Below the pieces are notes generated by a model that was not told the origin of the DNA, made no database searches, and worked only from the letters and a program-made list of their open reading frames with translations. From the NCBI RefSeq assembly GCF_003790525.1, contig NZ_CP033635.1: a stretch of 64,000 nt of DNA; one strand, written 5' to 3'. Positions within the stretch are counted from its first letter, which is position 1. Every line of letters starts with the position of its first letter. Source of the stretch: Escherichia coli (GTDB lineage: Bacteria; Pseudomonadota; Gammaproteobacteria; Enterobacterales; Enterobacteriaceae). Shown one piece after another: positions 23,349 to 40,243 of this stretch. Made by a program: the position numbers and the translations under genes.

Positions 23349-25291
23349 CGCCTTTGCTCGAATTAAAGGATATTCGTCGCAGCTATCCTGCCGGTGATGA
23401 GCAGGTTGAGGTGCTGAAGGGCATCAGCCTCGATATTTATGCCGGTGAGATGGTAGCGATTGTTGGCGCTTCGGGTTCCGGCAAATCGACCCTGATGAAT
23501 ATTCTCGGCTGCCTGGATAAGGCCACCAGCGGCACCTATCGCGTCGCCGGTCAGGATGTTGCCACGCTGGACGCCGATGCGCTGGCGCAACTGCGCCGCG
23601 AGCATTTCGGCTTTATTTTCCAGCGTTACCATTTGCTTTCGCATTTAACCGCCGAGCAGAACGTTGAAGTTCCCGCCGTCTATGCTGGTCTTGAGCGGAA
23701 ACAGCGGCTGCTTCGCGCCCAGGAGTTGCTGCAACGACTGGGGCTGGAAGACCGTACAGAGTATTATCCGGCACAGCTTTCGGGTGGTCAGCAACAGCGT
23801 GTCAGCATCGCGCGGGCATTGATGAACGGCGGTCAGGTAATTCTTGCCGATGAACCAACCGGTGCACTGGACAGCCATTCTGGCGAAGAGGTGATGGCGA
23901 TCCTGCATCAGCTGCGCGATCGCGGGCATACGGTGATTATCGTCACCCACGATCCGCAGGTTGCTGCTCAGGCCGAGCGGGTGATCGAAATTCGTGACGG
24001 CGAAATTGTGCACAATCCTCCCGCCGTTGAAAAAGTGAATGCTACTGGCGGGACGGAACCTGTTGTCAACACGGCGTCTGGCTGGCGGCAGTTTGTCAGC
24101 GGTTTTAACGAGGCGCTGACGATGGCATGGCGGGCGCTGGCAGCGAATAAAATGCGTACTTTACTGACCATGCTGGGGATTATTATCGGTATTGCGTCGG
24201 TGGTTTCCATTGTCGTGGTGGGCGACGCCGCCAAACAAATGGTGCTGGCGGATATTCGTTCTATTGGTACGAATACTATTGATGTCTATCCCGGGAAAGA
24301 TTATGGCGATGACGATCCGCAATATCAGCAGGCGCTGAAGTACGACGACTTAATCGCCATCCAAAAACAACCGTGGGTCGCCTCAGCCACACCTGCCGTC
24401 TCGCAAAACCTGCGCCTGCGTTATAACAATGTTGATGTGGCTGCCAGTGCCAATGGCGTGAGCGGCGATTATTTTAATGTCTATGGCATGACCTTCAGTG
24501 AAGGGAACACCTTTAATCAGGAGCAGCTGAACGGTCGTGCGCAGGTGGTGGTTCTCGACAGTAATACTCGCCGCCAGCTTTTCCCCCATAAAGCAGATGT
24601 GGTTGGCGAGGTGATTCTGGTCGGCAATATGCCCGCCAGAGTCATTGGTGTGGCGGAAGAAAAACAGTCGATGTTTGGTAGCAGTAAAGTGCTGCGTGTC
24701 TGGCTACCTTACAGCACGATGTCCGGGCGAGTTATGGGCCAGTCGTGGCTGAACTCCATTACTGTCAGGGTGAAAGAAGGATTTGACAGCGCCGAGGCGG
24801 AACAGCAACTCACGCGTTTACTTTCACTGCGCCACGGTAAGAAGGATTTCTTTACCTGGAACATGGATGGTGTCTTGAAAACCGTTGAAAAGACCACACG
24901 TACTTTACAACTGTTTCTGACGCTGGTGGCGGTGATTTCGCTGGTGGTGGGCGGTATTGGTGTAATGAATATTATGCTGGTGTCAGTGACCGAGCGGACG
25001 CGGGAAATTGGCATTCGCATGGCTGTAGGTGCGCGAGCAAGCGATGTTTTGCAACAGTTCCTGATCGAAGCCGTACTGGTTTGCCTGGTCGGTGGCGCGT
25101 TGGGAATAACACTGTCACTGTTAATTGCTTTCACCTTGCAGCTTTTCTTACCCGGCTGGGAGATTGGTTTTTCACCGTTGGCACTGCTGCTGGCGTTTCT
25201 CTGCTCGACGGTCACCGGGATTTTATTTGGCTGGTTACCCGCACGAAATGCGGCACGACTGGATCCAGTAGATGCTCTGGCACGAGAGTAA
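23345..25291 (+). CDS. macB: Macrolide export ABC transporter ATPase/permease
   Basis: 648 aa; N-terminal ABC ATPase ([17 protein letters not shown]) plus C-terminal FtsX-like permease. Confidence 0.9.
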
Positions 25292-25302
25292 TTTTTGAGA
25301 TA

Positions 25303-25331
25303 AAAATGCCAGCCGATCGGGCTGGCATTTT
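25303..25331. terminator. Bidirectional terminator between macB and cspD
   Basis: AAAAATGCCAGCCGATCGGGCTGGCATTTTG: hairpin with A-run and T-run on either side. Confidence 0.6.
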
Positions 25332-25363
25332 GCCTTTAGGATGTACACAATGAGACAGAAGAG

Positions 25364-25588
25364 CTATGCGACTGCCGCTTCTACTTCGACGGGCACAATA
25401 ACACTGGCGTGATTGCCTTTTGGCCCCTGGTGGACATCAAACTGAACGGATTGTCCAGCTTTTAGCGTTCTGTAACCATCCATCTGAATGGTGGAATAAT
25501 GAGCGAAAATATCTTCGCCGCCGCCTTCAGGGCAGATGAAACCAAACCCTTTGGCATTGTTGAACCACTTAACAGTACCCTTTTCCAT
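25364..25588 (-). CDS. cspD: Stationary-phase cold-shock-domain protein
   Basis: MEKGTVKWFNNAKGFGFI... CSD; start at MEKGTV rather than the upstream ATG. Confidence 0.9.
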   Translation of the reverse strand: MEKGTVKWFNNAKGFGFICPEGGGEDIFAHYSTIQMDGYRTLKAGQSVQFDVHQGPKGNHASVIVPVEVEAAVA

Positions 25589-25945
25589 GCTTCGACATCC
25601 TTCGCAAATCTTATACAAGTAAGATGGAATAAACCGGGGTCAGAGAGGGGGCTGTTCAAAACCTCGCCAACTCTAGAAATACAATTTAGAGAATTAGGGC
25701 GAGCCGTCAAGCATTTGACAGGGGACAGGGGGCAGGTATGAATCAAAAATTTGAAGCAGTTAACGCTATTGACAGGAATGTGACAGATGTCGCTGATGCC
25801 AACGATAGATGATAGTTATTTATCATCTAGTGTTCGCGGGTGTTCGTGGTAGTGTTTTGTGTGCATTCATCGCTATGATTATAAAGGAAAATTTTGTTTT
25901 ACTTGTTCGCTCTTGTTCGTCACGGTTTGCCCTTGTACGATGCAC

Positions 25946-25969
25946 GGTGTAGTCAATGGTGTAGTTAAT
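25946..25969. repeat. Island attL direct repeat
   Basis: GGTGTAGTCAATGGTGTAGTTAAT; an additional GTTCGCGG(G/T)TGTTCG block at 25832-25846 is also repeated at the right end (36264-36278). Confidence 0.65.
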
Positions 25970-25992
25970 TTTGATGACCGGAAACGCGAAAC

Positions 25993-27231
25993 ATGAGCAG
26001 CGCAATTCATAGACTTAGCGACACTCTTTTACGAAAATTAAGCGGATCACCAACCACAAAAAACGCCTTTTTTAATGACGGTGGCAATCTTAGCGTAAGA
26101 CATTCCACCAGCGGCCTGTTAACCTGGTATTTCACTTACAGGGCCGGAACTGGCAGGCAGGTATCACCGGAACGCCTGAGACTGGGCAACTATCCCGATC
26201 TGAGCCTGAAAGCAGCCAGGGAAAAAGCGGCACAGTGTCGCGCCTGGCTGGCGGAGGGGAAAAATCCACGCCATGAGCTTAATCACACAGTGCAGGAAGC
26301 GTTAGCCCCCGTGACGGTTAAGGACGCGCTCACTTACTGGCTTGAGTCGTATGCGAAGGAAAAGCGCACTGACCACGAATCACTGAAAAGCCGTATCAAT
26401 AAGCACATAATCAGCCAGATTGGTGCTATGCCGCTGGATAAATGCGAGCTACGCCACTGGCTGGCCTGTTTTGACCAGCTTGCTAAGCGTAATCCGGTAT
26501 CAGCCGGCTTTTTGTTGCAGGTATGCAAACAGGCGCTTAAGTACTGCCGTAAACGTCGCTACGCCGTCAGTAACGTTCTTGATGATATGGTCGTAGGTGA
26601 TGTGGGAAAAAAAGCAGAAATAAGCGAGCGAGTGCTAACAAACAAGGAGCTTGGCGAGCTACTCCGCGCACTGGATGAAAAAATTTTCCCGCCGTACTAC
26701 AGCGCTTTAATTCGCCTTCTGATTGTCTTCGGATGCCGTACCACTGAGCTAAGACGCTCCGAGGTTCGGGAATGGGATTTTAAAGAAATGCTCTGGACTG
26801 TGCCGAAAGAACACAGCAAAACGAAGGTAGCAATATTCAGGCCAATACCGGAAGCGATCTTGCCGTTCGTCATGAAGCTGGTGGAGCAGAACAGGCACAC
26901 GGGCTTATTGCTTGGAGAACTGAAAGGGCAATCATCCGTAGCAGAGTACGGAAGAACGGCACACAGACGCATTAATCAAGCCCCCTGGTCGTTGCACGAC
27001 ATCCGGCACACATTTACAACCATGCTGAACGATTTAGGCGTGGATCCGCATATTGTCGAACAGCTTACTGCCCACCAGATGCCAGGAATGCAACGCGTCT
27101 ATAACCACTCCCGTTATCTCGATGCAAAGCGTGACGCTCTTAATCTATGGGTAGACCGTCTCGAGCTTCTCCAGAACAATGATGAAAAAATCGTTGTTAT
27201 GACCCCGCGAATTTACCCCCAAAATTCTTGA
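25993..27231 (+). CDS. int: Tyrosine integrase (P4-type)
   Basis: 412 aa; C-terminal catalytic region (...HDIRHTFTTML...YNHSRYLD) adjacent to the att repeat. Confidence 0.85.
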   Translation: MSSAIHRLSDTLLRKLSGSPTTKNAFFNDGGNLSVRHSTSGLLTWYFTYRAGTGRQVSPERLRLGNYPDLSLKAAREKAAQCRAWLAEGKNPRHELNHTVQEALAPVTVKDALTYWLESYAKEKRTDHESLKSRINKHIISQIGAMPLDKCELRHWLACFDQLAKRNPVSAGFLLQVCKQALKYCRKRRYAVSNVLDDMVVGDVGKKAEISERVLTNKELGELLRALDEKIFPPYYSALIRLLIVFGCRTTELRRSEVREWDFKEMLWTVPKEHSKTKVAIFRPIPEAILPFVMKLVEQNRHTGLLLGELKGQSSVAEYGRTAHRRINQAPWSLHDIRHTFTTMLNDLGVDPHIVEQLTAHQMPGMQRVYNHSRYLDAKRDALNLWVDRLELLQNNDEKIVVMTPRIYPQNS

Positions 27232-27650
27232 CAAATTACGGCTGTTTTTTCTTTAAGAGATTACAGCCGTGAATAGATCTTAGAATATCGGGGAATATCT
27301 GCAAATATCTTCTCTTTATATGTGTCAACTATCGAAAAAAATTGAAATGTCTTCTTCTGAGTTCTTATTCTCTGTTTCTTGATTGTTCCAACATCTGATG
27401 GTTTATCTATTTGTTTTTAATGAGGTAATTCAGGTGACATGCCAAATGACGACATTTTTTGTTGCGTCGCTTAAAAACTCGTGACACGATTTTAAACACT
27501 AACGAGCTTCTACGAACCTTAGCGAACAAAGCCTTTAGCATGGTTGTGTTTTTAATTTAAGAGGTGAAAAAGAATCTAAGTAATATCCGATCTCATATAT
27601 CTACAGCTAAGAGAAAAGTTTATATACGTAATTTTTATGTAGGTTTTTGT

Positions 27651-27860
27651 ATGCGTGAAATAAATGAAGATCGCGTAATCCGTGAGGATGAATGTCGTAA
27701 GTTAACTGGAGTGTGTCGCACTACACGCTACGAACTGGAGAAAAAAGGGAGCTTTCCGTCTCGCCGTAATCTTGGTGGGCGTTCTGTAGGTTGGCTGCTG
27801 TCCGAGGTTATGGAATGGGTTAAAAGCCGGGATCGCATTAATTCAGGCAAGGCAGCGTAA
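27651..27860 (+). CDS. alpA: AlpA-family phage transcriptional regulator (excisionase-like HTH)
   Basis: ~69 aa from MREINEDRV...; layout resembles AlpA/Vis-family proteins; position right after int. Confidence 0.65.
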   Translation: MREINEDRVIREDECRKLTGVCRTTRYELEKKGSFPSRRNLGGRSVGWLLSEVMEWVKSRDRINSGKAA

Positions 27861-27998
27861 AGGGGAGTATATGACACATAAAACAAAGGCGACCGGGGGC
27901 GGTCGCCAATGGGAAAACACTAAACATAAGCCCGAACATCATAGCGATTTGCTGGCTGGTGGGCAATGTGTCCAGTGTGGTGGCTTGCTGGTGGATTG

Positions 27999-28199
27999 TC
28001 AGCCAGGTGGGCGGTTTTTGTTTGCTTTTAAGCGCCGAGGGTATTTCTCGACAAAAGGATCAAGGGCGAACTTATCAGGAACTTTAAGATTTTCAGTGCG
28101 GGTTAATGCCTTATTTATTTCCCTGCGGGTTTTCTCACGCTGGCGCATGATAATTGATAATGCTTTATTTTGTAGTTCCTGGTTATTCATAATTATCAC
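27999..28199 (-). CDS. Hypothetical small basic protein
   Basis: 66 aa ORF directly downstream of the RHH gene on the same strand; may be co-transcribed. Confidence 0.35.
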   Translation of the reverse strand: MIIMNNQELQNKALSIIMRQREKTRREINKALTRTENLKVPDKFALDPFVEKYPRRLKANKNRPPG

Positions 28200-28247
28200 C
28201 TTTAAAACAATGCGCCGCAGTACCTCACACCACGGCGCTGATAGTGA

Positions 28248-28427
28248 TTATTCTGATTCTTTGGCCTTGCGGCGCTGGCGGTATTCAACTTCTCGCTTTA
28301 ATGCTGCTGTTACAAACTGCCCTGTACTTTCACCAGGCATTTTTACCGCCTCAACATTGTTCATAACTTCATGCGGAACCCTTGCCGCAACTGTTTGTGA
28401 TTTTGCGTTTACTGCTTTTGTCGCCAT
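28248..28427 (-). CDS. Ribbon-helix-helix (CopG/Arc-like) DNA-binding protein, 59 aa
   Basis: Hand-translated (below the 60-aa track cutoff): MATKAVNAKSQTVAARVPHEVMNNVEAVKMPGESTGQFVTAALKREVEYRQRRKAKESE; palindromic operators lie just upstream. Confidence 0.5.
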   Translation of the reverse strand: MATKAVNAKSQTVAARVPHEVMNNVEAVKMPGESTGQFVTAALKREVEYRQRRKAKESE

Positions 28428-28477
28428 GTTGTGTACCCCTTACAAAAAACAAATGCAGTATGCAGGAAAAAAAATAA

Positions 28478-28530
28478 GTGTTCAACACTTGGCGTGTTTA
28501 ACACCTAGGCTTAAATTGGTGTTCAACACC
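28478..28530. promoter_or_regulatory. Three palindromic operator-like sites
   Basis: GTGTTCAACAC (28478-28488), GTGTTTAACAC (28495-28505), GGTGTTCAACACC (28518-28530) upstream of the RHH gene. Confidence 0.45.
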
Positions 28531-29571
28531 TTGTTGATGAAAGGTGCAGAAACGACGAAACCCCGCACTGTTGGAGCAGTAACGGGGCTTCTAACCACCA
28601 ACGATAGAAAGCGTATCGAGGTAGCTATGTTAAATCATACCACACACCCGCAAGGGCGGGACCCGCACAACCTGAATAAATACATCTGGCGTTTTATCGC
28701 CCTGAGCACAGCACAACCACGCGTTATTACCATCGGGGCCACCAGCGAACAGGAAGCCCGCCAGCAATCCCCGACTGGCTGGGTGATGGTATTGGCCTCC
28801 AGATTTCATCATCGCTGTTTGTTTTTTGTCTGTCTCTCCTCGGGGTATGGGGTTGTGCCGTTCCAGCGTATGCGGGGCCGTTCACTGATGAAGCGCTCAA
28901 GCGGGAAATTATCGGATGGCGCGGGGGGCCGTACCCGTCGTTCCCGCCTCCGCTGGCGTACCACGCTGGCTTCGGTAATTTCCCCTGATTCGTTTATTTT
29001 CATAAAGAGTTACCTCCGTGCTCATCTGCTCTGGCGTTTTCTGTTTCTGATGAAGACTTACAGCGGTAGCGGCGTATCTTATCTTAAGATTTGGTTTAAT
29101 TTCTCGTGTCTGGCTTTAATGACGGCGCGTAATAATATCTGTCGCTGCTTTGTGTTTACGTCCAGAACTGTGGGGGATAATATGGATTTGTTCATGGTGC
29201 TCACCTGTAATGCATTGCGTCGTGATGCCTCATATCACGGCGGCGGTTATCGTTTTGTTCGGATTCGTCCCCTGATGAAATCCTCAAGCGGAAAATGTTC
29301 AGGGCGAGGTAATTCAGGAGGGACAGGGTTATTACTCATGCGCTCACGTTCCCTTGCGGCGCGTGCAGCATTCAGCTTTTGCAGGAGCACATCAAACGGC
29401 ACCCCCTTATCATTCATGGTCCCCCCTGTATATCCGTTGTTAACTGATGGTTACAGGTGCATTTTTCGCACAAACTATTTAATCAACACATCCGACCACA
29501 TTATCAGAGAGCCGGAATATACAGGGGCAATAATCCCGCATTTGCTGGCCTACGCACAGCTTACCGCTGAT

Positions 29572-29859
29572 ATGGCACTGAATGAGGCCAAAGCCATCCT
29601 GATTGCTGATTGTGAATATGGGGTTATGCGTGATGATCGTTTTAATGCCCTGAAACAGGAATTTGATGGCACACCGGAAGATACAGATATTGCGCTGTTA
29701 TGTGTTGCTGACATGGTAAAAGCTGCATGTTTTTTACTGGAAACCGCCGAACATTCAGGAACGGGTAGCGATATTCTCAATATTGCGTCGGACTATGCTG
29801 AATATGTGGCAGAGGCGCGTTACAGAAGAAAATTCCAGGAGGTGGTTAGCCATGAATAA
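29572..29859 (+). CDS. Hypothetical protein (start uncertain; TTG at 29542 is an alternative)
   Basis: Only protein-like portion of the long stop-free frame; ends with an AGGAGG RBS for the next gene. Confidence 0.4.
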   Translation: MALNEAKAILIADCEYGVMRDDRFNALKQEFDGTPEDTDIALLCVADMVKAACFLLETAEHSGTGSDILNIASDYAEYVAEARYRRKFQEVVSHE

Positions 29860-30025
29860 TCATGAAGCGCACTTACCTGTAGTGCTTAATGTGCCATCTG
29901 ATTATACGGGGCGCGTTTTGATATTTCTGGATAAAGGGAAAGTGAAATCGCAATGCCGCCTTAGAAATAATGAGGTTATTGGTTCTCTGGCTTTTTTTCT
30001 GAAGCCTGTATTCGCGCCGGAATAA
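29851..30025 (+). CDS. Hypothetical small protein (57 aa)
   Basis: ATG overlaps the upstream stop (CATGAATAATC) with an AGGAGG SD 8 nt upstream. Confidence 0.4.
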
Positions 30026-30055
30026 AGCCGGAATCACTGACAGGAAAATAAAACC

Positions 30056-30355
30056 ATGAAAAAGAAAAATTCTGGCTTTACTGCCAGCGGCCTCGCTCGG
30101 CCTGAAATCCGTCCCGGCTATATTTTCCGTGATAACTACGGCGGTACGGTAACGATTAAAGGCGTGGCAGAACGGCGCATCACCTACCGCCATGAAGGTT
30201 ACGAATATGATTGCGTGATGCCTGTTTATCAGTTTGTGCGTGATTTTTCTCTTGTGCAGGCCGTACCGCGTAACGTGCCCACCAGCAGGGAGAAAGCACG
30301 CGCCAATATTCAGAAGATGAAAACCATGATTAACGGATTCAGGGGTAAAAAATGA
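30056..30355 (+). CDS. Hypothetical protein
   Basis: 99 aa ORF; 4-bp overlap with the primase start. Confidence 0.5.
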   Translation: MKKKNSGFTASGLARPEIRPGYIFRDNYGGTVTIKGVAERRITYRHEGYEYDCVMPVYQFVRDFSLVQAVPRNVPTSREKARANIQKMKTMINGFRGKK

Positions 30356-32100
30356 AACTGGCACCGAACGTAAAACTGCAGTCACGCGGCATAAAACACA
30401 AAGGAACTGAAGTCATTATTTTTGCGGGTAGTGATGCCTGGGCACACGCGAAACAATGGCAGGAACATGACGCGCGTATGGCCGGAGATAATGAGCCTCC
30501 TGTGTGGCTTGGGGAGCAGCAGTTATCCGAACTGGATAAGCTGCAAATTGTGCCGGAAGGCAGAAAATCCGTGCGTATATTCAGGGCCGGATATCTTGCG
30601 CCAGTAATGATAAAGGCGATTGGTCAGAAGCTGGCGGCGGCTGGCGTACAGGACGCAAATTTTTACCCCGAAGGAATGCACGGTCAGAAGTGTGAAAACT
30701 GGCGGCGTTATCTGAATGCTGAGCGTGAAAATATTGCTGCAGGGCTTACCATGCCGGAGCAGAAAAATACGCAACTGGCACAAATGGCAGACAGTGAGCG
30801 CGCACAGATGCTTGCTGGTCGATTTGATGGCGTTTGTGTGCATCCGGAAAGTGAAATCGTTCACGTATGGCGCGGCGGGGTATGGTGTCCGGTCAGCACA
30901 ATGGAACTGAGCCGCGAAATGGTGGCGATCTATTCAGAGCACAGGGCCACTTTCAGCAAGCGCGTAATCAGTAACGCCGTGGAAGCGTTAAAAGTTATTG
31001 CCGAACCAATGGGCGAGCCGTCCGGCGATTTGCTGCCGTTCGCCAATGGTGCGCTTGACCTGAAAACGGGGGAATTTTCCCCGCACACGCCGGAGAACTG
31101 GATCACCACGCACAACGGCATTGAGTACACGCCACCAGCACCTGGGGAGAACATCCGCGATAACGCGCCAAACTTTCATAAATGGCTTGAGCACGCAGCC
31201 GGAAAAGACCCGCGCAAGATGATGCGTATATGTGCCGCGCTGTACATGATTATGGCGAACCGGTACGACTGGCAGATGTTTATTGAGGCCACCGGAGACG
31301 GCGGGAGCGGTAAAAGTACATTCACACACATAGCCAGCCTTCTGGCAGGGAAACAGAACACGGTAAGTGCTGAGATGACATCGCTTGATGATGCTGGTGG
31401 GCGTGCGCAGGTTGTCGGGAGTCGTCTTATCGTCCTGGCAGACCAGCCGAAATATACAGGCGAAGGAACGGGCATCAAGAAAATCACGGGCGGTGACCCC
31501 GTGGAAATTAACCCGAAATACGAAAAGCGTTTCACGGCTGTAATCAGGGCGGTGGTGCTGGCGACCAACAATAACCCGATGATATTCACCGAACGGGCCG
31601 GAGGTGTGGCACGTCGTCGCGTGATTTTTCGTTTCGACAATATCGTCAGTGAGGCTGAAAAAGACAGGGAGCTACCGGAAAGGATTGCGGCTGAAATCCC
31701 CGTCATTATCCGCCGATTACTGGCGAACTTTGCAGACCCTGAAAAGGCGCGGGCTTTACTACTGGAACAGCGTGACGGTGATGAAGCACTGGCGATAAAG
31801 CAGCAAACGGATCCGGTTATTGAGTTTTGCCAGTTCCTGAATTTTCTGGAGGAAGCACGTGGCCTGATGATGGGTGGCGGTGGCGATTCCGTGAAGTACA
31901 CGACCAGAAACAGCCTGTACCGCGTCTATCTGGCGTTTATGGCATACGCAGGCAGGAGCAAACCGCTGAACGTGGCTGAGTTCAGCAAGGCCATGAAGCC
32001 AGCGGCGAAAGTTTACGGACATGAATATATAACGCGCAGGATTAAAGGGGTTACGCAAACCAACGTGACAACAACAGACGACTGCGACGCGTTTTTATAG
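30352..32100 (+). CDS. P4-family phage/plasmid primase-helicase-like replication protein
   Basis: 582 aa; C-terminal NTPase with Walker A GDGGSGKST and LADQP Walker B-like motif typical of the P4 alpha / D5 family. Confidence 0.8.
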   Translation: MKLAPNVKLQSRGIKHKGTEVIIFAGSDAWAHAKQWQEHDARMAGDNEPPVWLGEQQLSELDKLQIVPEGRKSVRIFRAGYLAPVMIKAIGQKLAAAGVQDANFYPEGMHGQKCENWRRYLNAERENIAAGLTMPEQKNTQLAQMADSERAQMLAGRFDGVCVHPESEIVHVWRGGVWCPVSTMELSREMVAIYSEHRATFSKRVISNAVEALKVIAEPMGEPSGDLLPFANGALDLKTGEFSPHTPENWITTHNGIEYTPPAPGENIRDNAPNFHKWLEHAAGKDPRKMMRICAALYMIMANRYDWQMFIEATGDGGSGKSTFTHIASLLAGKQNTVSAEMTSLDDAGGRAQVVGSRLIVLADQPKYTGEGTGIKKITGGDPVEINPKYEKRFTAVIRAVVLATNNNPMIFTERAGGVARRRVIFRFDNIVSEAEKDRELPERIAAEIPVIIRRLLANFADPEKARALLLEQRDGDEALAIKQQTDPVIEFCQFLNFLEEARGLMMGGGGDSVKYTTRNSLYRVYLAFMAYAGRSKPLNVAEFSKAMKPAAKVYGHEYITRRIKGVTQTNVTTTDDCDAFL

Positions 32101-32109
32101 TTTTAGACA

Positions 32110-32345
32110 AAAGCCCTCTACCCCTTCTACCTTAAGAAAATAATTACATATATTTCATGTTGATAGATTGGGTAGATGGCAGGTAGAAGGTACTTAAAAG
32201 CCCTCTACACCCTCTACCATAATTCAGGGCATTTGTGAGGGGGTGGTAGATGGCAGGTAGAGGGCCAAAAAAGCCCTCTACCCCGCTGAAATCCGCGCCA
32301 TTACTGACCTGAAAGATGATTGTGTAGAGAGGTAGAGGAGGTGCA
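32110..32345. repeat. Iteron cluster (putative island replication origin)
   Basis: About 12 copies of CCCTCTACC / GGTAGAGGG in both orientations (e.g. 32112-32131, 32171-32190, 32199-32218, 32241-32264, 32272-32285, 32328-32342) immediately downstream of the primase gene. Confidence 0.65.
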
Positions 32346-32386
32346 CCACAACACAAAACTTTTTAAACACGAGGGTAAAAATAAAA

Positions 32387-32644
32387 ATGCACACATCAGA
32401 AAAATTTAACAATCAGAAGAAATCACATAACCGCGCCATTGACCTTACAGAGCACTGGCTGAGGGTGGCGATAAAAATCATCGACCGCAACGCGGGAGAA
32501 GGATACGCGAAAGCGCATCCCGAACTGATTAGCGCATTCATGACCACAGCGGCGGCAAACTTTGCCACGCTGACACAACGGGAGATTGCCGAAGCGGAAC
32601 AGGTAACAACCATCAACGTTAAAACCAGTGAGGTGGAATCATGA
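32387..32644 (+). CDS. Hypothetical protein
   Basis: 85 aa ORF; stop overlaps the next start. Confidence 0.45.
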   Translation: MHTSEKFNNQKKSHNRAIDLTEHWLRVAIKIIDRNAGEGYAKAHPELISAFMTTAAANFATLTQREIAEAEQVTTINVKTSEVES

Positions 32645-33051
32645 CAGCACAGATAGCGGCTTACGGGCGGCTGGTGGCTGACCCGCAGTTAAAGACCACC
32701 AGCAAGGGGACACAAATGGCGATGGCGAGTATGGCGGTCCCCCTTCCGTGCAGCCAGGCAGATGACGGAACGGCGACGATGTGGTTATCTGTGCTGGCGT
32801 TTGGCAGACAGGCCGAAGCACTGGCAAAGCACCGCAAGGGTGAACTCCTGAGCGTGGCGGGTAACATGCAGGTCAGCCAGTGGACCGGACAGAACGGGGA
32901 AACGCGGCAGGGCTGGCAGGTTATCGCAGACAGCGTAATCAGTGCGCGGACAGTGCGACCGGGCGGAAAAACACGCAAAACCACAGGCGCACAGGGGAAT
33001 AAGCCACCAGCGGGAGGCGATGGCCCCTACGGAGATGATATACCCTTCTGA
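32641..33051 (+). CDS. Single-stranded-DNA-binding (OB-fold, SSB-like) protein
   Basis: 136 aa; layout resembles the SSB N-terminal OB fold (GRLVADPQL...W..VLAFGRQAE...QW..QNGE.R); C-terminal G/P-rich tail. Confidence 0.55.
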   Translation: MTAQIAAYGRLVADPQLKTTSKGTQMAMASMAVPLPCSQADDGTATMWLSVLAFGRQAEALAKHRKGELLSVAGNMQVSQWTGQNGETRQGWQVIADSVISARTVRPGGKTRKTTGAQGNKPPAGGDGPYGDDIPF

Positions 33052-33068
33052 ATCAGGCGGGGAGCAAC

Positions 33069-33389
33069 ATGAACAACAGCACACCGAAGAACCGGACAAT
33101 AAGCGACGCGACAGCAGAAGAACTCGAGAGCAGGGGACTGTGGCGACGGGCTGCCAGAAGGTGGCAGGATGTGATGATTACTCTTCAGGAAGACAGGCAC
33201 AGAGAACTTGCGGCAATGAGAGCAAGGGAATGTATCAGGAAGGCAAAGCGCCCGATACCTGAAAACCGTTATGATGTTCACGCAGTCAGAAGGGCCGCAG
33301 ACAGGACAATACAACAGATGGGGCTACCGTCGCTTACTGATGAAATATGGCGTGATTACCCTGATAACGTAAATGATGACGGTTATTAA
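33069..33389 (+). CDS. Hypothetical protein
   Basis: 106 aa charged ORF. Confidence 0.45.
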   Translation: MNNSTPKNRTISDATAEELESRGLWRRAARRWQDVMITLQEDRHRELAAMRARECIRKAKRPIPENRYDVHAVRRAADRTIQQMGLPSLTDEIWRDYPDNVNDDGY

Positions 33390-33468
33390 CAGGCGGGGAA
33401 ACACGACACCAGCGGGAGCGACACGGGGTAGCAGATGCCGCTGGTGGAACAGCACAAAGGGGGAGAAC

Positions 33469-34053
33469 ATGACAAAGCTGACCATTAACCGAAAACCAAA
33501 AGGCATATACGGCACACCGCAGAAAAAGACGCAGGAGGCTGAACAGCCGGATAAAACCACACCAGCGCAAAAGCAGAGCCGCGAGCAGAAAACACAACAG
33601 AAGACGGCAGCAAAACGCAAATCAGAAAAGAGCCGGAAAAAAAATATCAGACGCGTTGAACGCCTTGCCGCGCTCTGGCCTGAACTTTTCAGCCAGGAAT
33701 CGCCCAGACCGCTTAAGGTTGGCATATTTGATGACCTGATGGAGGATATTACTGCGAGAGGTATTTCATTAGGTCAGGGAGCGCTTCGCGCAACGCTGGC
33801 GTATTATGTCAGTTCAGTGCGATATTACCGTTCCCTGATGGCTGGTGGCGTGCGTTACGACCTGAAAGGCCATCCGTGCGGGGAGGTGACACAGGAGCAC
33901 CAGTTGAACGCGGGGAAGCGACTGGATGAGATGAAGAAAAAACAGCAGGAGCGCAGAAACATGAAGGCAGAAAATAAGCATAACGGTAAGCCACCAGCAG
34001 GGCATAATATTATTCTGAAAAATGCCAGTTCCTCGGGCGTACGGAAAGCATAA
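33469..34053 (+). CDS. ProQ/FinO-domain RNA-binding protein
   Basis: Lys-rich N-terminus followed by LAALWPELFSQESPRPLKVGIFDDLMEDI...LRATLAYYVSSVRYYRSLMAGGVRYDLKGHPCGEV, close to the ProQ N-terminal FinO domain; start at ATG 33469 with GGGGGAG RBS. Confidence 0.65.
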   Translation: MTKLTINRKPKGIYGTPQKKTQEAEQPDKTTPAQKQSREQKTQQKTAAKRKSEKSRKKNIRRVERLAALWPELFSQESPRPLKVGIFDDLMEDITARGISLGQGALRATLAYYVSSVRYYRSLMAGGVRYDLKGHPCGEVTQEHQLNAGKRLDEMKKKQQERRNMKAENKHNGKPPAGHNIILKNASSSGVRKA

Positions 34054-34075
34054 AACCCTGACCACATGAAGAGAC

Positions 34076-34105
34076 GAAGCCGGAGTAGTCCGGCTTTATT
34101 TTTTA
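34076..34105 (+). terminator. Rho-independent terminator
   Basis: AAGCCGGAGTAGTCCGGCTTT followed by ATTTTTTAT. Confidence 0.55.
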
Positions 34106-34130
34106 TGGGTCCTTTCCGGCATGTGGACCC

Positions 34131-34300
34131 GTTACGGGGCGGCGACCTCGCGCAAAACAACTCCTTATGAAATTTTTACGGGAAATTCAGATCCGTTCTT
34201 CTTTTTTGTAAGTCATTGTGTATATTGAATTTTATTTGTTCTGAGAAAGGATCTGATAAGGCTTCGTTTCGCCTGAAAAGGCAGTTTTAAGATCCTTTCT
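34131..34300 (+). other. Lambda-type cos site (cosN plus cosB-like region)
   Basis: GTTACGGGGCGGCGACCTCGCG matches the lambda cohesive-end region (12-nt GGGCGGCGACCT at 34137-34148); downstream TTATGAAATTTTTACGGG and CCGTTCTTCTTTTTT resemble lambda cosB elements. Confidence 0.65.
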
Positions 34301-34340
34301 TAAAAAAACGGGTCATTTTCTTGCTGGAGGGGATGCTGGT

Positions 34341-34925
34341 GTGAGGGTTAACAAGAAAAAGCTGGCTGAGATTTTTGATGTTGATGTGCGGACTATATCC
34401 ACCTGGCAAAATCAGGGGCTGCCGCTGATATCAGGCGGCGGGAAAGGGAATGAAGCGATTTTTGATACGGGAAAAGCGATTGAGTGGTTCGCTCAGCGTG
34501 AGGCCGACATTGAAAATGAAAAACTTCGTAAGGAAGTCGACGATATGCGCGTGGCTGCTGAGTCGGATCTGCAGCCCGGTACGATTGATTACGAACGCTA
34601 CCGTCTCACAAAAGCACAGGCAGATGCGCAGGAACTTAAAAACGAGCGCGATCGCGGTGACGTGATTGATACAGAGTTTTGCATGTACGCGCTTTCAAAA
34701 CTGGCGAGACAGATTTCATCAATCATGGACAGCCTCCCGCTTACTATGCAAAGGAGCTTCCCACAGATGACCCCCGCCATGCTGGATGGCCTGAAAAAAG
34801 AAGTTGTCAGAGCCTGTAACGCATGCACAAAACTTGATGAAAACATCCCGCGAATGCTGTCCGATTATCTGATGGAAACTACCGGAAATGTGCCTGATAA
34901 GTTTCAGCCGGATAAAGACAAGTAA
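34341..34925 (+). CDS. Nu1-like small terminase subunit homologue (candidate packaging-redirection factor)
   Basis: MRVNKKKLAEIFDVDVRTISTWQNQGLPLISGGGKGNEAIFD...ADIENEKLRKEV...LQPGTIDYERYRLTKAQADAQELKN closely parallels lambda Nu1; GTG start. Confidence 0.75.
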   Translation: MRVNKKKLAEIFDVDVRTISTWQNQGLPLISGGGKGNEAIFDTGKAIEWFAQREADIENEKLRKEVDDMRVAAESDLQPGTIDYERYRLTKAQADAQELKNERDRGDVIDTEFCMYALSKLARQISSIMDSLPLTMQRSFPQMTPAMLDGLKKEVVRACNACTKLDENIPRMLSDYLMETTGNVPDKFQPDKDK

Positions 34926-35086
34926 CGTAGTGCACAATGACCGAAGCCAGTTTACTGACTGGCTTTCAGCGTTGCGCTGGTGGGCGTTATGCGTCAGTGA
35001 TGAACAAAAAACAATCGAAATCGACACCGAAAAATAAAACATCAAGTCATATCAATATATTGCATTGGTGGTGATAACGAATAAAA

Positions 35087-35467
35087 ATGCAAAAACTAGC
35101 CTTTTTCCGCGATGCTCCCGCCCCGTGGCAGGGCACCCCACAAGGAGGACCCGCCATCACTATGGAGGACATGACCATGACCATGACCGAGACCGAAGCG
35201 ATCGGGATAATCCGCAGTATTACCGGAATCAGCCAGCAGGCTGGCGAACAGGAGGCCACGCAGCCGGACAGCGTGATAGCCGAAAATTACGCGTGTGTTG
35301 TTGCTGAGGTGATGCGCCGTGATGGTATTGAGCTTAACGGCGTGGATATGCGCAACATACGAACCAGAGTCCTTGAGTTGCTGGCATACCGTCGCCGTTC
35401 TCAACAACGGAGGGAGAGCGCGAAAAACACTTATCAGTGGAAGAAGCCGGAACGGTTGCGGCGGTAG
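35087..35467 (+). CDS. Hypothetical protein (true start may be the internal MEDMTM...)
   Basis: 126 aa ORF; last protein-like ORF before the right att. Confidence 0.4.
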   Translation: MQKLAFFRDAPAPWQGTPQGGPAITMEDMTMTMTETEAIGIIRSITGISQQAGEQEATQPDSVIAENYACVVAEVMRRDGIELNGVDMRNIRTRVLELLAYRRRSQQRRESAKNTYQWKKPERLRR

Positions 35468-36293
35468 ATTCCTGATATTCAGGAAAACCACGAATCCGGG
35501 GGTTTTACTGGCGCGGTGTACACGGTGGAACGCATAGCGTTACCTGACTTATTGCATTGTAAAAAGTTAGAAAGGCACGGCCTGTAAGATGGGATGTTGT
35601 GAGTAGTTTAAAGCTACCCGCAAATTCTTTCGTTGTGCTGGCACAGGCGGTTAAACCGTCGGTAACTGGATAATCCCCACTGGGGGAAAAGCTGGCTACA
35701 TCCCTCACATCTGAGGACTGATAATGCGACATTGCGCTGGCTGGTGGGTGAGTTGCAGATTTGCAACTCGACCATGAAACTACGGAAACTACCCGTAGTT
35801 TGGGTAGTAAGAGTAACACCCAGATTTTGGGGCTTACTCGCGATACCCAAATAAAGGGTATCGGTGGAAGAAATATCGTTTCTCATATGTAAGTACCGAG
35901 GGCGGAATTCCGCCTTCGGTTACTTATTGTGCTCATTCACAGGGAGGGGCGGGTCAAATCTCTGTACCCTGACGTCTTCAGGACTGCCCGCCCCATCGAT
36001 TTTTTATACCCGCGAAAAATGAAAAACGCTTCACGCTGGTGGGCCTGATGCCGATATGGGGAGCCGCATACCGGAGAATATCCACCAGCACGGCAACAGC
36101 AGAATAGCCCCGACACAGAAAAACCACGAATATGGGGTTTTTGTTATGGCATGGTCATGATGACCGCCCCTGCTCTGAATGGTGGAAATCACCACGCAGA
36201 TCATCCACCAGCTTCATGACGGATAGCCGGAAAATGATAATGATTAAAGCGTGTTGATCTTTGTTCGCGGTTGTTCGATATTGTTCGTGAAGC

Positions 36294-36317
36294 GGTGTAG
36301 TTAATGGTGTAGTTAAT
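36294..36317. repeat. Island attR direct repeat
   Basis: GGTGTAGTTAATGGTGTAGTTAAT, 23/24 identical to attL. Confidence 0.65.
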
Positions 36318-36488
36318 ATCACTGTTTTTGACGGGCTTGTTATTTGCAACATAATGAAAAATAAAGACTAATTAACTAAATGATATAAGATAGTTATCTA
36401 TCATGTGGAGTAGATTGGTCAGGCAAATAAGCTCTTGTCAGCGGCAGGGCGTTCTGCCGATAACCGTAACCGAAGATGATAACTGACA

Positions 36489-36809
36489 ATGGGTAAAACG
36501 AACGACTGGCTGGACTTTGATCAACTGGCGGAAGAAAAAGTTCGCGACGCGCTAAAACCGCCATCTATGTATAAAGTGATATTAGTCAATGATGATTACA
36601 CTCCGATGGAGTTTGTTATTGACGTGTTACAAAAATTCTTTTCTTATGATGTAGAACGTGCAACGCAATTGATGCTCGCTGTTCACTACCAGGGGAAGGC
36701 CATTTGCGGAGTCTTTACCGCCGAGGTTGCAGAAACCAAAGTGGCGATGGTGAACAAGTACGCGAGGGAGAATGAGCATCCATTGCTGTGTACGCTAGAA
36801 AAAGCCTGA
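36489..36809 (+). CDS. clpS: ClpA adaptor protein ClpS
   Basis: 106 aa; [21 protein letters not shown] motif. Confidence 0.95.
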
Positions 36810-36839
36810 ATGCAGGCATAAAAATTGGGGGAGGTGCCT

Positions 36840-39116
36840 ATGCTCAATCAAGAACTGGAACTCAGTTTAAATATGGCTTTCGCCAGAGCGCGCGAGCACC
36901 GTCATGAGTTTATGACCGTCGAGCACTTGTTACTGGCGCTGCTCAGTAACCCATCTGCCCGGGAGGCGCTGGAAGCGTGTTCTGTGGATTTGGTTGCGCT
37001 CCGTCAGGAACTGGAAGCCTTTATTGAACAAACCACACCCGTTCTGCCTGCCAGTGAAGAGGAGCGCGACACACAGCCGACGCTGAGTTTTCAGCGTGTA
37101 CTGCAACGTGCGGTCTTCCATGTCCAGTCCTCCGGTCGCAATGAGGTTACCGGTGCAAACGTTCTGGTCGCTATTTTTAGCGAACAGGAGTCGCAGGCGG
37201 CATATCTGTTGCGTAAACATGAAGTCAGCCGTCTCGATGTGGTGAACTTTATCTCTCATGGCACGCGTAAAGACGAGCCGACACAGTCTTCTGATCCTGG
37301 CAGCCAGCCAAACAGCGAAGAACAAGCTGGTGGGGAGGAACGTATGGAGAATTTCACGACGAACCTGAATCAGCTTGCGCGAGTGGGCGGAATCGACCCA
37401 CTGATTGGTCGTGAGAAGGAGCTGGAGCGTGCTATTCAGGTTCTCTGCCGTCGCCGTAAAAACAACCCGCTGCTGGTGGGGGAATCTGGTGTCGGTAAAA
37501 CCGCGATTGCGGAAGGTCTTGCCTGGCGAATTGTTCAGGGCGATGTGCCGGAAGTGATGGCTGACTGTACGATTTACTCTCTCGATATCGGTTCTCTGTT
37601 AGCGGGCACTAAATATCGCGGCGACTTTGAAAAACGTTTTAAAGCGTTGCTCAAGCAGCTGGAGCAGGACACTAACAGCATCCTGTTTATTGATGAGATC
37701 CACACCATTATCGGTGCGGGTGCAGCGTCTGGTGGTCAGGTCGATGCGGCTAACCTGATCAAACCGTTGCTCTCCAGCGGTAAAATTCGCGTAATTGGTT
37801 CGACAACCTATCAGGAGTTCAGCAACATTTTCGAGAAAGACCGTGCTCTGGCGCGTCGCTTCCAGAAAATTGATATTACTGAACCGTCGATCGAAGAAAC
37901 TGTTCAAATCATCAATGGCCTGAAACCGAAGTACGAAGCGCACCATGACGTGCGTTATACCGCAAAAGCGGTGCGTGCAGCGGTAGAGCTGGCGGTGAAA
38001 TACATTAACGATCGTCATCTGCCGGATAAAGCCATTGACGTTATCGACGAAGCGGGCGCTCGCGCACGCCTGATGCCGGTAAGCAAACGCAAGAAAACCG
38101 TTAATGTGGCGGATATTGAGTCTGTGGTGGCCCGTATTGCGCGCATTCCAGAGAAGAGTGTTTCGCAGAGTGACCGCGATACCCTGAAAAACCTCGGCGA
38201 TCGCCTGAAAATGCTGGTCTTCGGTCAGGATAAAGCCATTGAGGCGCTGACTGAAGCCATTAAGATGGCGCGTGCAGGTTTAGGTCACGAACATAAACCG
38301 GTCGGTTCGTTCCTGTTTGCCGGTCCTACCGGGGTCGGGAAAACAGAGGTGACGGTACAGCTTTCGAAAGCTTTGGGCATTGAGCTTCTGCGCTTTGATA
38401 TGTCCGAGTATATGGAACGCCATACCGTCAGCCGTCTGATTGGTGCGCCTCCGGGATACGTTGGTTTTGATCAGGGGGGGCTGCTGACCGATGCGGTCAT
38501 CAAGCATCCGCACGCGGTACTGCTGCTGGACGAAATCGAGAAAGCGCATCCGGACGTGTTCAATATTCTGTTGCAGGTGATGGACAACGGTACGCTGACC
38601 GATAACAACGGACGCAAAGCGGACTTCCGTAACGTGGTATTGGTGATGACCACCAACGCTGGGGTACGAGAAACTGAGCGTAAATCGATTGGTCTTATCC
38701 ATCAGGACAACAGCACCGATGCGATGGAAGAGATCAAGAAGATCTTTACGCCGGAGTTTCGTAACCGTCTCGACAACATTATCTGGTTCGATCATCTCTC
38801 CACCGACGTGATCCATCAGGTAGTGGATAAATTCATCGTCGAGTTGCAGGTTCAGCTGGATCAGAAAGGTGTTTCTCTGGAAGTGAGCCAGGAAGCGCGT
38901 AACTGGCTGGCCGAGAAAGGTTACGACCGGGCAATGGGCGCACGTCCGATGGCGCGTGTCATCCAGGACAACCTGAAAAAACCGCTCGCCAACGAACTGT
39001 TGTTTGGTTCGCTGGTGGACGGCGGTCAGGTGACGGTTGCGCTGGATAAAGAGAAAAATGAGCTGACTTACGGATTCCAGAGTGCACAAAAGCACAAGGC
39101 GGAAGCAGCGCATTAA
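36840..39116 (+). CDS. clpA: ATP-dependent Clp protease ATP-binding subunit ClpA
   Basis: Two AAA+ modules ([16 protein letters not shown]); start at MLNQELE. Confidence 0.95.
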
Positions 39117-39140
39117 TCTGATTGTCTGGTAGGTTGGTGA

Positions 39141-39178
39141 AGTCCGTAATCTCGAAAGAGGTTACGGACTTTTTGTTT
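39141..39178 (+). terminator. clpA terminator
   Basis: AGTCCGTAATCTCGAAAGAGGTTACGGACT followed by TTTTGTTT. Confidence 0.6.
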
Positions 39179-39399
39179 GTAGGGTGGAGGAGGTTCAGAC
39201 CCTTTTTTTGATGATGATGGTAAGTTGTTGATAATTAGTGCTGCGGGAAGGTAAGGATAAAAAAGGGTGGTAGCAGGAAAATGAGATGGTTTTGCTTTAT
39301 TAATAACGGACTAAACGTGTAGTATTTGAGCTCACTGCCGTACAGGCAGATAAAATGCGAAAAAAAGCCCGTACTTTCGTACGAGCTCTTCTTTAAATA

Positions 39400-39487
39400 T
39401 GGCGGTGAGGGGGGGATTCGAACCCCCGATACGTTGCCGTATACACACTTTCCAGGCGTGCTCCTTCAGCCACTCGGACACCTCACC
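39400..39487 (-). tRNA. serW: tRNA-Ser (anticodon GGA)
   Basis: Reverse complement reads GGTGAGGTGTCCGAGTGG...CCTGGAAAGTG...GGTTCGAATCCCCCCCTCACCGCCA; long variable arm. Confidence 0.9.
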
Positions 39488-39675
39488 AAATTGTTTTGCT
39501 GCCAAACCTCATGGGTGGCAACGGGGCGCTACTATAGGGAGTTGGAGTAAAACGGTCAAGAAGAATTTTAATGATAATTATTGTTTGCTCATACTGTAAA
39601 CAAGTTGTGCAGTATATCTACATCGAGACAAGTTATGGACTTATACTTCCAAAGTACTTCATACATATCACAAAA

Positions 39676-39703
39676 TAAAAAGGTCGGTTAAACCGACCTT
39701 TTA
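39676..39703 (-). terminator. infA terminator
   Basis: AAAAGGTCGGTTAAACCGACCTTTT hairpin flanked by A/T runs. Confidence 0.5.
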
Positions 39704-39740
39704 CTCGTTCTTTCTCTTCGCCCATCAGGCGGTAAAACAA

Positions 39741-39962
<222 letters not shown>

Positions 39963-40243
39963 ATCCTCTGGGGTATCACTACCGTAATTTGAACCGGCAA
40001 GATAATGCCGAAGTTCTGTAAATAAGTAAAGATTTGCGCGCTAAATCGCAACAAACAGGTTCGGCACATTACTCCGAAAACACACGGCTAAGCCGCACCA
40101 AAAGCGCAACGTATAAGGGAGCGGTGAGATAAACGATGGGCGTTACCTGACGCGAAAAATTCCTTATCGGCAGCGGGGTAATGAGCGTAACCAACTCTGC
40201 GACCGCAATTATAACACTCTGGGGAGAAATGTGCCGAAAACAT

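Follow-up and report, generated by a model that had tools for sequence, protein, structure and literature searches.

Positions 35470-36150 of a 64,000-nucleotide stretch of Escherichia coli chromosomal DNA (NCBI RefSeq assembly GCF_003790525.1, contig NZ_CP033635.1; hereafter the window) lie at the right end of a phage satellite. A sequence-only reading of the window had described these ~650 bp as hairpin-dense and free of open reading frames (ORFs), and had proposed a structured RNA, a nicking or packaging accessory site, or degraded cargo as possible explanations. The placement at the right end of the satellite was borne out, as the stretch sits between the last island gene (35183-35467) and the right attachment site, attR. 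The 24-bp direct repeat GGTGTAGT(C/T)AATGGTGTAGTTAAT is found at both island borders, where the attL core (25946-25969) and the attR core (36294-36317) delimit a 10,348-bp island inserted between yljB/cspD and clpS. An identical island is carried by TUM1886, in which it is annotated to encode an integrase, a helix-turn-helix regulator, an Icd-like protein, a DUF4222 protein, a primase, SSB, a PerC-like regulator, a ProQ/FinO-domain protein, a small terminase (TerS) and one small hypothetical protein; no capsid, tail or lysis gene occurs in this gene list. A 761-bp query covering the hairpin-rich stretch is matched at 100% identity in strains TUM1886, GF60 and TUM9803.

The gene set matches that of Gram-negative phage-inducible chromosomal islands (PICIs) as described previously (PMC6092414). 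An integrase gene (int, 25993-27231) lies at one end of an element in the ~10-15 kb range that is enclosed by direct att repeats. The island has its own primase gene (30352-32100) with adjoining iteron-like repeats (a probable origin), lacks capsid, tail and lysis genes, and carries a packaging device composed of a Nu1-type TerS, a lambda cosN and an SfV-type second cos site. On these sequence features the island is classed as a PICI, and would be expected to undergo induction, excision and transfer.

Comparison with related islands from E. coli genomes and viral contigs indicates that the stretch is a mosaic of five parts, with no single element spanning it (Table 1). We read it as the packaging-proximal right end of the PICI, whose functional heart would be the second cos site, cos2 (35942-36024), and estimate the probability of this reading at about three in four. 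The island could then probably be packaged by two unrelated families of helper phage.

Table 1. Features at the right end of the island (window coordinates)
Feature	Position	Strand	Remarks
cos1	34137-34148	+	exact lambda-type cosN GGGCGGCGACCT with lambda-like flanks (GTTACGGGGCGGCGACCTCGCG); between the ProQ/FinO gene and the nu1-like terS
island small terminase gene, lambda Nu1 family	34341-34925	+	Pfam Phage_Nu1, E = 3e-75
phrog_1561 gene	35183-35467	+	small gene, 94 amino acids (aa), without Pfam domain; always precedes the conserved block in related satellites
variable insertion of decayed cargo	35481-35715		235 bp; lacking in most related islands
bracket hairpin 1	35484-35506		decayed palindrome AAAAACCAC-GAATCT-GTGGTTTTT; encodes EKNHESVVF in KilA-N genes, e.g. 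HK620 hkbK
conserved non-coding block	35716-35941	+	five or six hairpins, terminator-like palindrome at the end
H0	35724-35737	+	first hairpin of the block; sequence varies with pairing kept (CGCA/TGCG, CCCA/TGGG, GTGCA/TGCAC)
Chi GCTGGTGG	35740-35747	+	247 bp left of the cos2 cut; at the boundary of block and variable insertion
block core	35750-35863	+	near-invariant, four hairpins; no Rfam match
H1	35750-35769	+	core hairpin
H2	35777-35801	+	alternative pairing ACTACCC/GGGTAGT
H3	~35807-35839	+	core hairpin
H4	35841-35863	+	core hairpin
GAATTC palindrome	35889-35928	+	strong stem, then UACUUAUUGU; satellite-specific, absent from phages
cos2	35942-36024	+	complete copy of the cos region that lies between HNH and terS in SfV/SfI/SfII/ST64B/P27-type phages; -53 to +30 relative to the cut
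cohesive-end decamer of cos2, TGCCCGCCCC	35985-35994	+	equals the SfI virion end; the phiP27 cos feature aligns here
candidate helper small-terminase binding site, CCCGCGAAAAATGAA	36009-36023	+	+15 to +29; by HK97 analogy only
inverted Chi pair right of cos2	36035-36089		GCTGGTGG 36035-36042, CCACCAGC 36082-36089
bracket hairpin 2	36120-36142		26-nt second copy of the same KilA-N segment; inside the non-conserved minus-strand ORF 36031-36204
further Chi CCACCAGC	36205-36212		right of the inverted pair
attR, right border of the island	36261-36317	+	core GGTGTAGTTAATGGTGTAGTTAAT (36294-36317), repeated at attL 25946-25969; TTGTTCG repeats left of the core

A second cos site of the SfV/SfI/P27 type

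The 83 bp of cos2 are 92-95% identical to the genome ends of phages SfII, ST64B, SfI, SfV and SfIV; identity to the phiP27 region that bears the annotation 'cos-site' is 83%. Sequencing of SfI virion DNA ends revealed, as a 10-nt gap, the cohesive end 5'-TGCCCGCCCC-3' (PMC3636060). The decamer at 35985-35994 is identical to this experimentally determined end, and the SfI record terminates exactly at window position 35994. Besides the decamer, cos2 shares with the HK97-like, HNH-dependent cos of SfI, SfV, SfII, ST64B and phiP27 an inverted repeat and T/A tracts reaching to +30. The inverted repeat had been listed in the sequence-only reading as the hairpin GGGGCGGG (35946-35953) ... CCCGCCCC (35987-35994), with an inner repeat CCTGA...TCAGG and a T-run (36000-36005), all of which are present. 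The accompanying idea of a nicking or packaging accessory site was right as to packaging and too modest as to extent, since the hairpin is part of a complete cos region homologous to that of SfV/SfI/SfII/ST64B/P27.

The setting of this segment was examined in 120 viral contigs fetched for the cos2 motif. In all but two the motif adjoins an HNH and/or a P27-family terminase gene, and the remaining two contigs are satellites. Where both flanks are present, the gene order is always HNH-cos-TerS (P27 family)-TerL, TerL being the large terminase. When the consensus of the phage copies (68 distinct) is set against that of the satellite copies (18 distinct), agreement is limited to -53 to +30 relative to the cut; satellites have taken the intergenic cos region only, without flanking HNH or terS coding sequence. 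Whereas the phage cos lies between the HNH gene and terS, cos2 lies between the satellite-specific hairpin block and attR, and no HNH, P27-type TerS or TerL gene was found in the island. Such a setting is expected of a satellite-borne copy and not of a phage. Among satellites of three lineages cos2 is 94-100% conserved at a fixed distance of 196 bp from the block (187 bp in copies with a 9-bp deletion), whereas the neighbouring TerS genes fall to 49-60% identity. The sequences that replace cos2 in other satellite types gave no match when searched against phages.

The island also carries a cos site of its own packaging family, which was missing from the sequence-only reading. The cos1 element GGGCGGCGACCT is the sole exact lambda cosN in the 64 kb and lies 193 bp upstream of the nu1-like gene. 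The arrangement is that of a lambda-type cos, with an exact 12-nt cosN, lambda-like flanks and then the nu1 homologue at 34341. The island Nu1 shares 53-70% identity with its counterparts in phages 21, phi80 and lambda-like phages and matches the lambda TerS structure 6hn7_B at 1.7e-40; no similarity to the P27-family TerS of SfV was detected. Redirection of packaging by an Rpp-type protein was rejected because the island TerS is a full Nu1 homologue, with a match to RppC at E = 0.008 only as compared to 3e-75 for Phage_Nu1, and because the phrog_1561 protein has no RppC similarity. The two cos sites are 1.85 kb apart and in the same orientation, with cos2 downstream.

The pairing recurs in other islands. 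An exact lambda cosN upstream of nu1 was found in 18 of 20 Nu1-type satellite loci, 10 of which also carry cos2. Among capsid-forming PICIs, cos2 was found in 6 of 16 loci, on top of their own diverged cos between hnh and terS. The latter element (GAGGGGGTGGGGG...CCGCCCCCTCAAATTTTT) retains the architecture of a phage cos in a diverged sequence.

The conserved hairpin block

The inverted repeats listed in the sequence-only reading were all recovered. In the block (35716-35941), which immediately precedes cos2, these are GATACCCAAATAAAGGGTATC at 35842-35862, (G)AGTTGCAGATTTGCAACT(C) at 35750-35769 and the GAATTC-centred palindrome at 35889-35928, whose core arms (35895-35907 and 35908-35920) are 92% complementary. 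Two further hairpins, at 35724-35737 and 35777-35801, had not been listed. A scan with a terminator consensus flags 35895-35920 followed by TACTTATTGT on the plus strand; the region holds three such sites as compared to 1.6 expected from shuffled sequences, and is therefore not enriched in them.

The core of the block (35750-35863) has a mean identity of 96% among 36 distinct copies from four satellite architectures, a figure to be read with the caveat that the copies were found through an exact 27-nt pattern inside the core. By comparison, the adjoining phrog_1561 gene is ~88% identical and the flanks of the block 67-69%. The four architectures are islands with a Nu1-type TerS, islands with lambda-like capsid/decoration genes and Nu1, capsid-forming PICIs, and PICIs embedded in a helper. 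Capsid-forming PICIs with the block carry hnh-terS(P27)-terL, and helper-embedded PICIs sit in the gpA gene of a prophage. Some capsid-forming PICIs hold the hairpin block twice, with copies 434-436 bp apart; between them lie iterons (TTGCGGGTTA three times plus inverted copies around an AT-rich stretch) and a diverged cos-like element, GGAGGGGGAGCAAAATCCC...GTGCCCGCCTCTTCGAATTTT.

The 3' end of the phrog_1561 gene, the block and cos2 are contiguous in at least 337 of 5426 complete E. coli genomes. Protein-pattern and DNA-pattern scans of 100,044 species-representative genomes for distant relatives returned nothing, and the module seems confined to the E. coli/Shigella pangenome. The phrog_1561 protein itself has no Pfam, NCBIfam, solved-structure or meaningful PADLOC match, and its AlphaFold model is of low confidence (pLDDT 64).

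From its position and orientation, the simplest reading of the block is that it most likely forms the structured 3' end and terminator of the late operon. Since it also occurs in satellites that lack cos2, it is not an accessory of cos. A role as replication origin was rejected because iterons are found by the primase gene (32109-32295) and the block has neither iterons nor an AT-rich segment. Arm sites for integrase or excisionase were likewise rejected, as the block accompanies at least four different attachment sites (upstream of clpS, thiM, ydgV/mdtJ and prophage gpA).

A different explanation is that the block, or the whole stretch, is a structured non-coding RNA, for example a small RNA derived from the 3' untranslated region of the late operon that acts on helper or host, perhaps together with the island ProQ/FinO protein (gene at 33373-34053). 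Folding is in keeping with this, as the predicted RNA of 35716-36010 reaches -123 kcal/mol compared to -85 +/- 5 for 200 dinucleotide shuffles (z = -7.4). However, the minus strand folds equally well (z = -7.8); the hairpins are DNA palindromes, so that fold energy is silent both on the relevant strand and on whether RNA matters. The higher conservation of the block than of the adjoining gene and flanks would suit an RNA, as would its co-orientation with the upstream operon and the terminator-like hairpin at its end, but no promoter of its own was found for the block. A covariance scan of 24000-40000 against Rfam 15 (E <= 1), a check suggested with the sequence-only reading, gave nothing within 35470-36330 on either strand.

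Compensatory changes offer a further line of evidence. Changes on both sides of a stem with pairing kept were found at three of five pairs in H0, at one pair in H4 and at the outer pair of H1; the position of H0 also holds GGCG/CGCC and GAAATT/AATTTC hairpins, which are not alignable in register. H1 to H3 are otherwise invariant and therefore uninformative on pairing, and with the module confined to E. coli/Shigella they stay uninformative for covariation. One-sided stem changes are compatible with G-U wobbles at eight positions on the plus strand and at one on the minus strand. This asymmetry hints at a plus-strand RNA and is not decisive, because plus-strand pyrimidine transitions dominate in unpaired columns too and the bias may be mutational. 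Moreover, the block is present in satellites without a ProQ/FinO gene, and the cos segment is left unexplained by an RNA but explained by phage homology. The idea of a structured RNA is thereby narrowed to the conserved block alone, where no Rfam family matches and covariation is confined to the flanking hairpins, and we consider it rather unlikely.

The block could also act as DNA, as an array of binding sites for the phrog_1561 protein, a terminase or a regulator, with heptamers and palindromes as recognition sites. It contains the symmetric heptamers AAACTAC-GG-AAACTAC-CC-GTAGTTT-GG-GTAGTAA, a four-heptamer array with 9-bp spacing and dyad symmetry, and near-invariance at the level of sequence is typical of protein-binding sites. 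The block always adjoins the phrog_1561 gene, which encodes a protein with a very basic C-terminus, and GGCGGAATTCCGCC recurs, forming H0 in some islands and the large palindrome in others. Yet no DNA-binding domain was detected in the phrog_1561 protein, for which matches in Pfam and among solved structures are lacking and the structural model is poor. At H0 the sequence varies while pairing is kept, which speaks for a readout of structure rather than of sequence, and the occurrence of the block with four or more attachment sites shows that it is not integrase-specific. We judge such an array improbable.

Other parts of the stretch are remnants of genes. The description as ORF-free holds in the useful sense that only short ORFs are present. 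A PHROG scan of eight sequences (six short ORFs and two translated stretches) gave no meaningful match, one reaching E = 0.29. The longest candidate, a 57-aa minus-strand ORF (36031-36204), was not accepted as a gene, being frameshifted or deleted in related islands. PGAP calls a single 61-aa hypothetical protein in the matching stretch of one relative, in a frame that is not kept among islands. Coding similarity is limited to 35481-35539, 35587-35630 and 36116-36142, with none for 35716-36024. The first of these segments is ~86% identical, with a frameshift, to an internal segment of KilA-N antirepressor genes (e.g. codons 53-72 of HK620 hkbK), and the second is ~95% identical to ORF6N/KilAC antirepressor genes.

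Only 34 of 5426 genomes contain 80% or more of the 235-bp insertion that holds the first two segments. In 38 relatives with both landmarks, out of 73 loci, the upstream gene is separated from the block by 45 bp (no insertion) to 424 bp, which leaves no room for a whole antirepressor gene. The gene lies 45 bp from the block in 13 of these 38, the commonest state, while other islands carry different insertions at the same point (gaps of 212 to 424 bp). No related island was found with an intact gene here; such a gene would have marked the stretch as a decayed gene. To the right of cos2, the first 35-40 bp of 36025-36260 are conserved among satellites and the remainder is variable.

The two similar hairpins that had been taken to bracket the region, AAAACCACGAATCCGGGGGTTTT at 35484-35506 and AAAACCACGAATATGGGGTTTTT at 36120-36142, do exist; lying 636 bp apart, they make up a direct repeat of 27 nt with 85% identity. 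As both are relics of a KilA-N gene, they are not boundaries of a functional unit; the second is deleted in several related islands. The earlier suggestion of degraded cargo accordingly applies to 35481-35715 and to the second bracket hairpin, with their KilA-N and ORF6N/KilAC fragments, and fails for 35716-36024. That the whole stretch is decayed cargo without present function, and its cos-like segment a dead relic of recombination with an SfV-like prophage, is very improbable: it would account for the antirepressor fragments (35481-35715, 36116-36142), the variable segment right of +65 with its broken ORF and the one-base change in the decamer of many satellites, but not for phage homology that covers exactly the intergenic cos (-53 to +30) without flanking HNH/terS coding sequence, for conservation of cos2 at fixed spacing beside diverging TerS genes, for a decamer identical to the functional SfI end, or for the lack of a coding signature in 35716-35941, where the variable columns lack 3-nt periodicity and a 1-nt deletion occurs in one copy.

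Packaging and the likely helpers

With cos2 read as a working packaging site, the following course of events would be expected. A phage of the SfV/SfI/P27 type would be induced in, or infect, a cell that contains the excised island, replicated as concatemers. The helper small terminase would bind to the right of the cut, at about +15 to +29 (36009-36023), and the helper large terminase together with HNH would cut at TGCCCGCCCC (35985-35994). Packaging would proceed to the right, across attP and int, and end at a later cos2 that is reached when the head is almost full. Four copies of the island would amount to 41.4 kb, close to the 37.1-42.6 kb genomes of SfV/SfI/P27-type phages. This length is within the packaging range of lambda. 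The proposed tetramer parallels the multimer packaging that has been proposed for EcCICFT073 (PMC6092414). Lambdoid helpers would supply gpA, directed to cos1 by the island Nu1, while SfV/SfI/P27-type helpers would supply TerS, TerL and HNH acting on cos2.

The candidate binding site is placed after HK97, an HNH-dependent system with a 10-nt cos, whose small terminase has a minimal site at +15 to +29 (bioRxiv 10.1101/2023.07.17.549218). The corresponding CCCGCGAAAAATGAA lies within the segment shared by phages and satellites, and homology stops one base later, at +30.

Chi sites are abundant around the cut. The island (25946-36317) contains 19 Chi octamers (10 GCTGGTGG and 9 CCACCAGC) where 0.3-1.0 would be expected from composition, giving 1.8 per kb compared to 0.24 per kb in the flanking host DNA, an eight-fold excess. 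Four of them fall in the 850-bp non-coding right end, as compared to 0.03 expected. By the published orientation rule (PMC12315714), RecBCD that enters at the cos2 cut and travels left would meet the site at 35740-35747 in its active orientation, and those at 36082 and 36205 are oriented to be active for entry from the opposite end. It is plausible that Chi sites on both sides of the cut protect the cut ends by stopping RecBCD degradation. The position of the leftmost of these sites, where the block meets the insertion, would fit Chi-stimulated recombination there.

Several observations weigh against this reading of the right end. No candidate helper or SfV-type prophage was found within the 64-kb window, and the island, lacking genes for HNH, P27-type TerS and TerL, would be wholly dependent on its helper. 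A search of SfV TerS against solved structures, including HK97 TerS, gave no sequence similarity, so the +15 to +29 binding site is an analogy and not a homology. In 17 of 26 satellite copies of cos2 the decamer reads TGCCAGCCCC, one base off the phage TGCCCGCCCC; this variant was found in no phage contig, and all 15 viral contigs that carry it are satellites. It could reflect relaxed constraint or a different specificity, and may be adaptive or, as both ends of one molecule still match, neutral; the island studied here has the phage version. The hairpin block also accompanies satellites without cos2, and across the island Chi is not biased towards either strand (10 top, 9 bottom), in contrast to Chi-rich lambdoid phages.

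The closest counterparts differ from the island in instructive ways. SaPIbov5 and other cos-type staphylococcal islands (Quiles-Puchalt et al. 2014, as cited in bioRxiv 10.1101/2022.09.08.507074) are likewise small integrated satellites that lack TerL and HNH genes and carry a copy of the cos of HNH-dependent helpers, and unmodified helper machinery would do the packaging. They belong to a different phylum and are unrelated in sequence, whereas the E. coli island adds a lambda-type cos and its own Nu1-like subunit; no capsid-size gene was seen in the latter. EcCICFT073, the prototype cos PICI of E. coli (PMC6092414, PMC6739421), resembles the island in its integrase, primase-type replication, lack of structural genes and possession of two cos sites. 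It is transferred by lambdoid helpers in full-size capsids as multimers, a mode that would also apply to the present island. Both cos sites of EcCICFT073 are lambda-like cosN, while the island has one of lambda type and one of SfV/P27 type, and where EcCICFT073 uses Rpp, which pairs with phage TerS and redirects packaging, the island has a full Nu1 homologue and no Rpp.

Capsid-forming PICIs such as EcCIEDL933 (bioRxiv 10.1101/2022.09.08.507074) share the right-end module of phrog_1561 gene and hairpin block, and some of the sampled loci share cos2. They differ in having their own hnh-terS-terL, capsid genes and a diverged cos between hnh and terS, none of which occurs in the island. With respect to Chi, the island resembles LLS, a Chi-rich lambdoid phage without a recombination module (PMC12315714), in over-representation of Chi, clustering near the cos end and the lack of a RecBCD inhibitor/recombinase module. 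In LLS, 20 of 23 Chi sites share one orientation (PMC12315714), whereas the island is balanced and a satellite.

Several features of the surrounding DNA were also recorded. Directly after the primase gene, 32109-32295 holds two interleaved families of direct repeats, AAAAGCCCTCTACCCC... (three times) and GGTAGATGGCAGGTAGA(A/G)GG (twice), and these iteron-like repeats are probably the replication origin of the island. The ProQ/FinO-domain gene (33373-34053) matches the NCBIfam ProQ and FinO models at E ~5e-21, below the model cut-offs; a satellite-borne RNA chaperone could have a partner RNA, for which the downstream hairpin block is one candidate. In a 662-aa ORF (27871-29859), the sole recognised part is a 46-aa Icd-like cell-division-inhibitor motif (residues 271-312), and the RefSeq start in the identical island is later, giving 477 aa. 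TTGTTCG/GTGTTCG heptamers lie left of both att cores, at 36261-36293 in island DNA and at 25820-25945 in host DNA, and may be arm-type sites of the integrase that mimic host sequence. Left of attL, the Rfam model of the cspA thermoregulator gives a sub-threshold match on the minus strand (25300-25693; 41.6 bits, gathering score 78) that covers cspD and its leader. A second integrative element follows tRNA-Ser(GGA), from 39400-39487 onward, and encodes an integrase, a YfjI-family protein, an inovirus Gp2-type protein, a frameshifted TOTE conflict-system primase domain and a large AAA protein.

Satellites that carry the cos site of a helper are a known kind, and the pairing of two packaging families is what is new here. 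No description of a satellite combining the cos sites of two packaging families was found in the searchable full-text literature, the coverage of which is incomplete. We put forward tentatively, at slightly less than even odds, a wider proposal: that the island is a dual-helper satellite in which a lambda-type signal (12-nt ends, own Nu1) and an HK97/SfV-type signal (10-nt ends, HNH-dependent, helper subunits only) both work, that the cos cassette has spread to capsid-forming PICIs, and that the hairpin block represents a new element that acts in cis, as RNA or DNA, in at least four E. coli satellite architectures. That a non-coding block is better conserved than its adjacent gene across four architectures is a noteworthy side result, as is the excess of Chi. 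At least 6% of complete E. coli genomes contain an island with contiguous gene end, block and cos2. A single island with two cos sites for two types of helper would provide a simple test bed for the choice that a terminase makes between cos sites on one concatemer. Should both sites work, such islands would have a wider range of helpers than their gene content suggests, and the pairing of satellites with helpers, along with the spread of island cargo, would be unpredictable from terminase genes alone.

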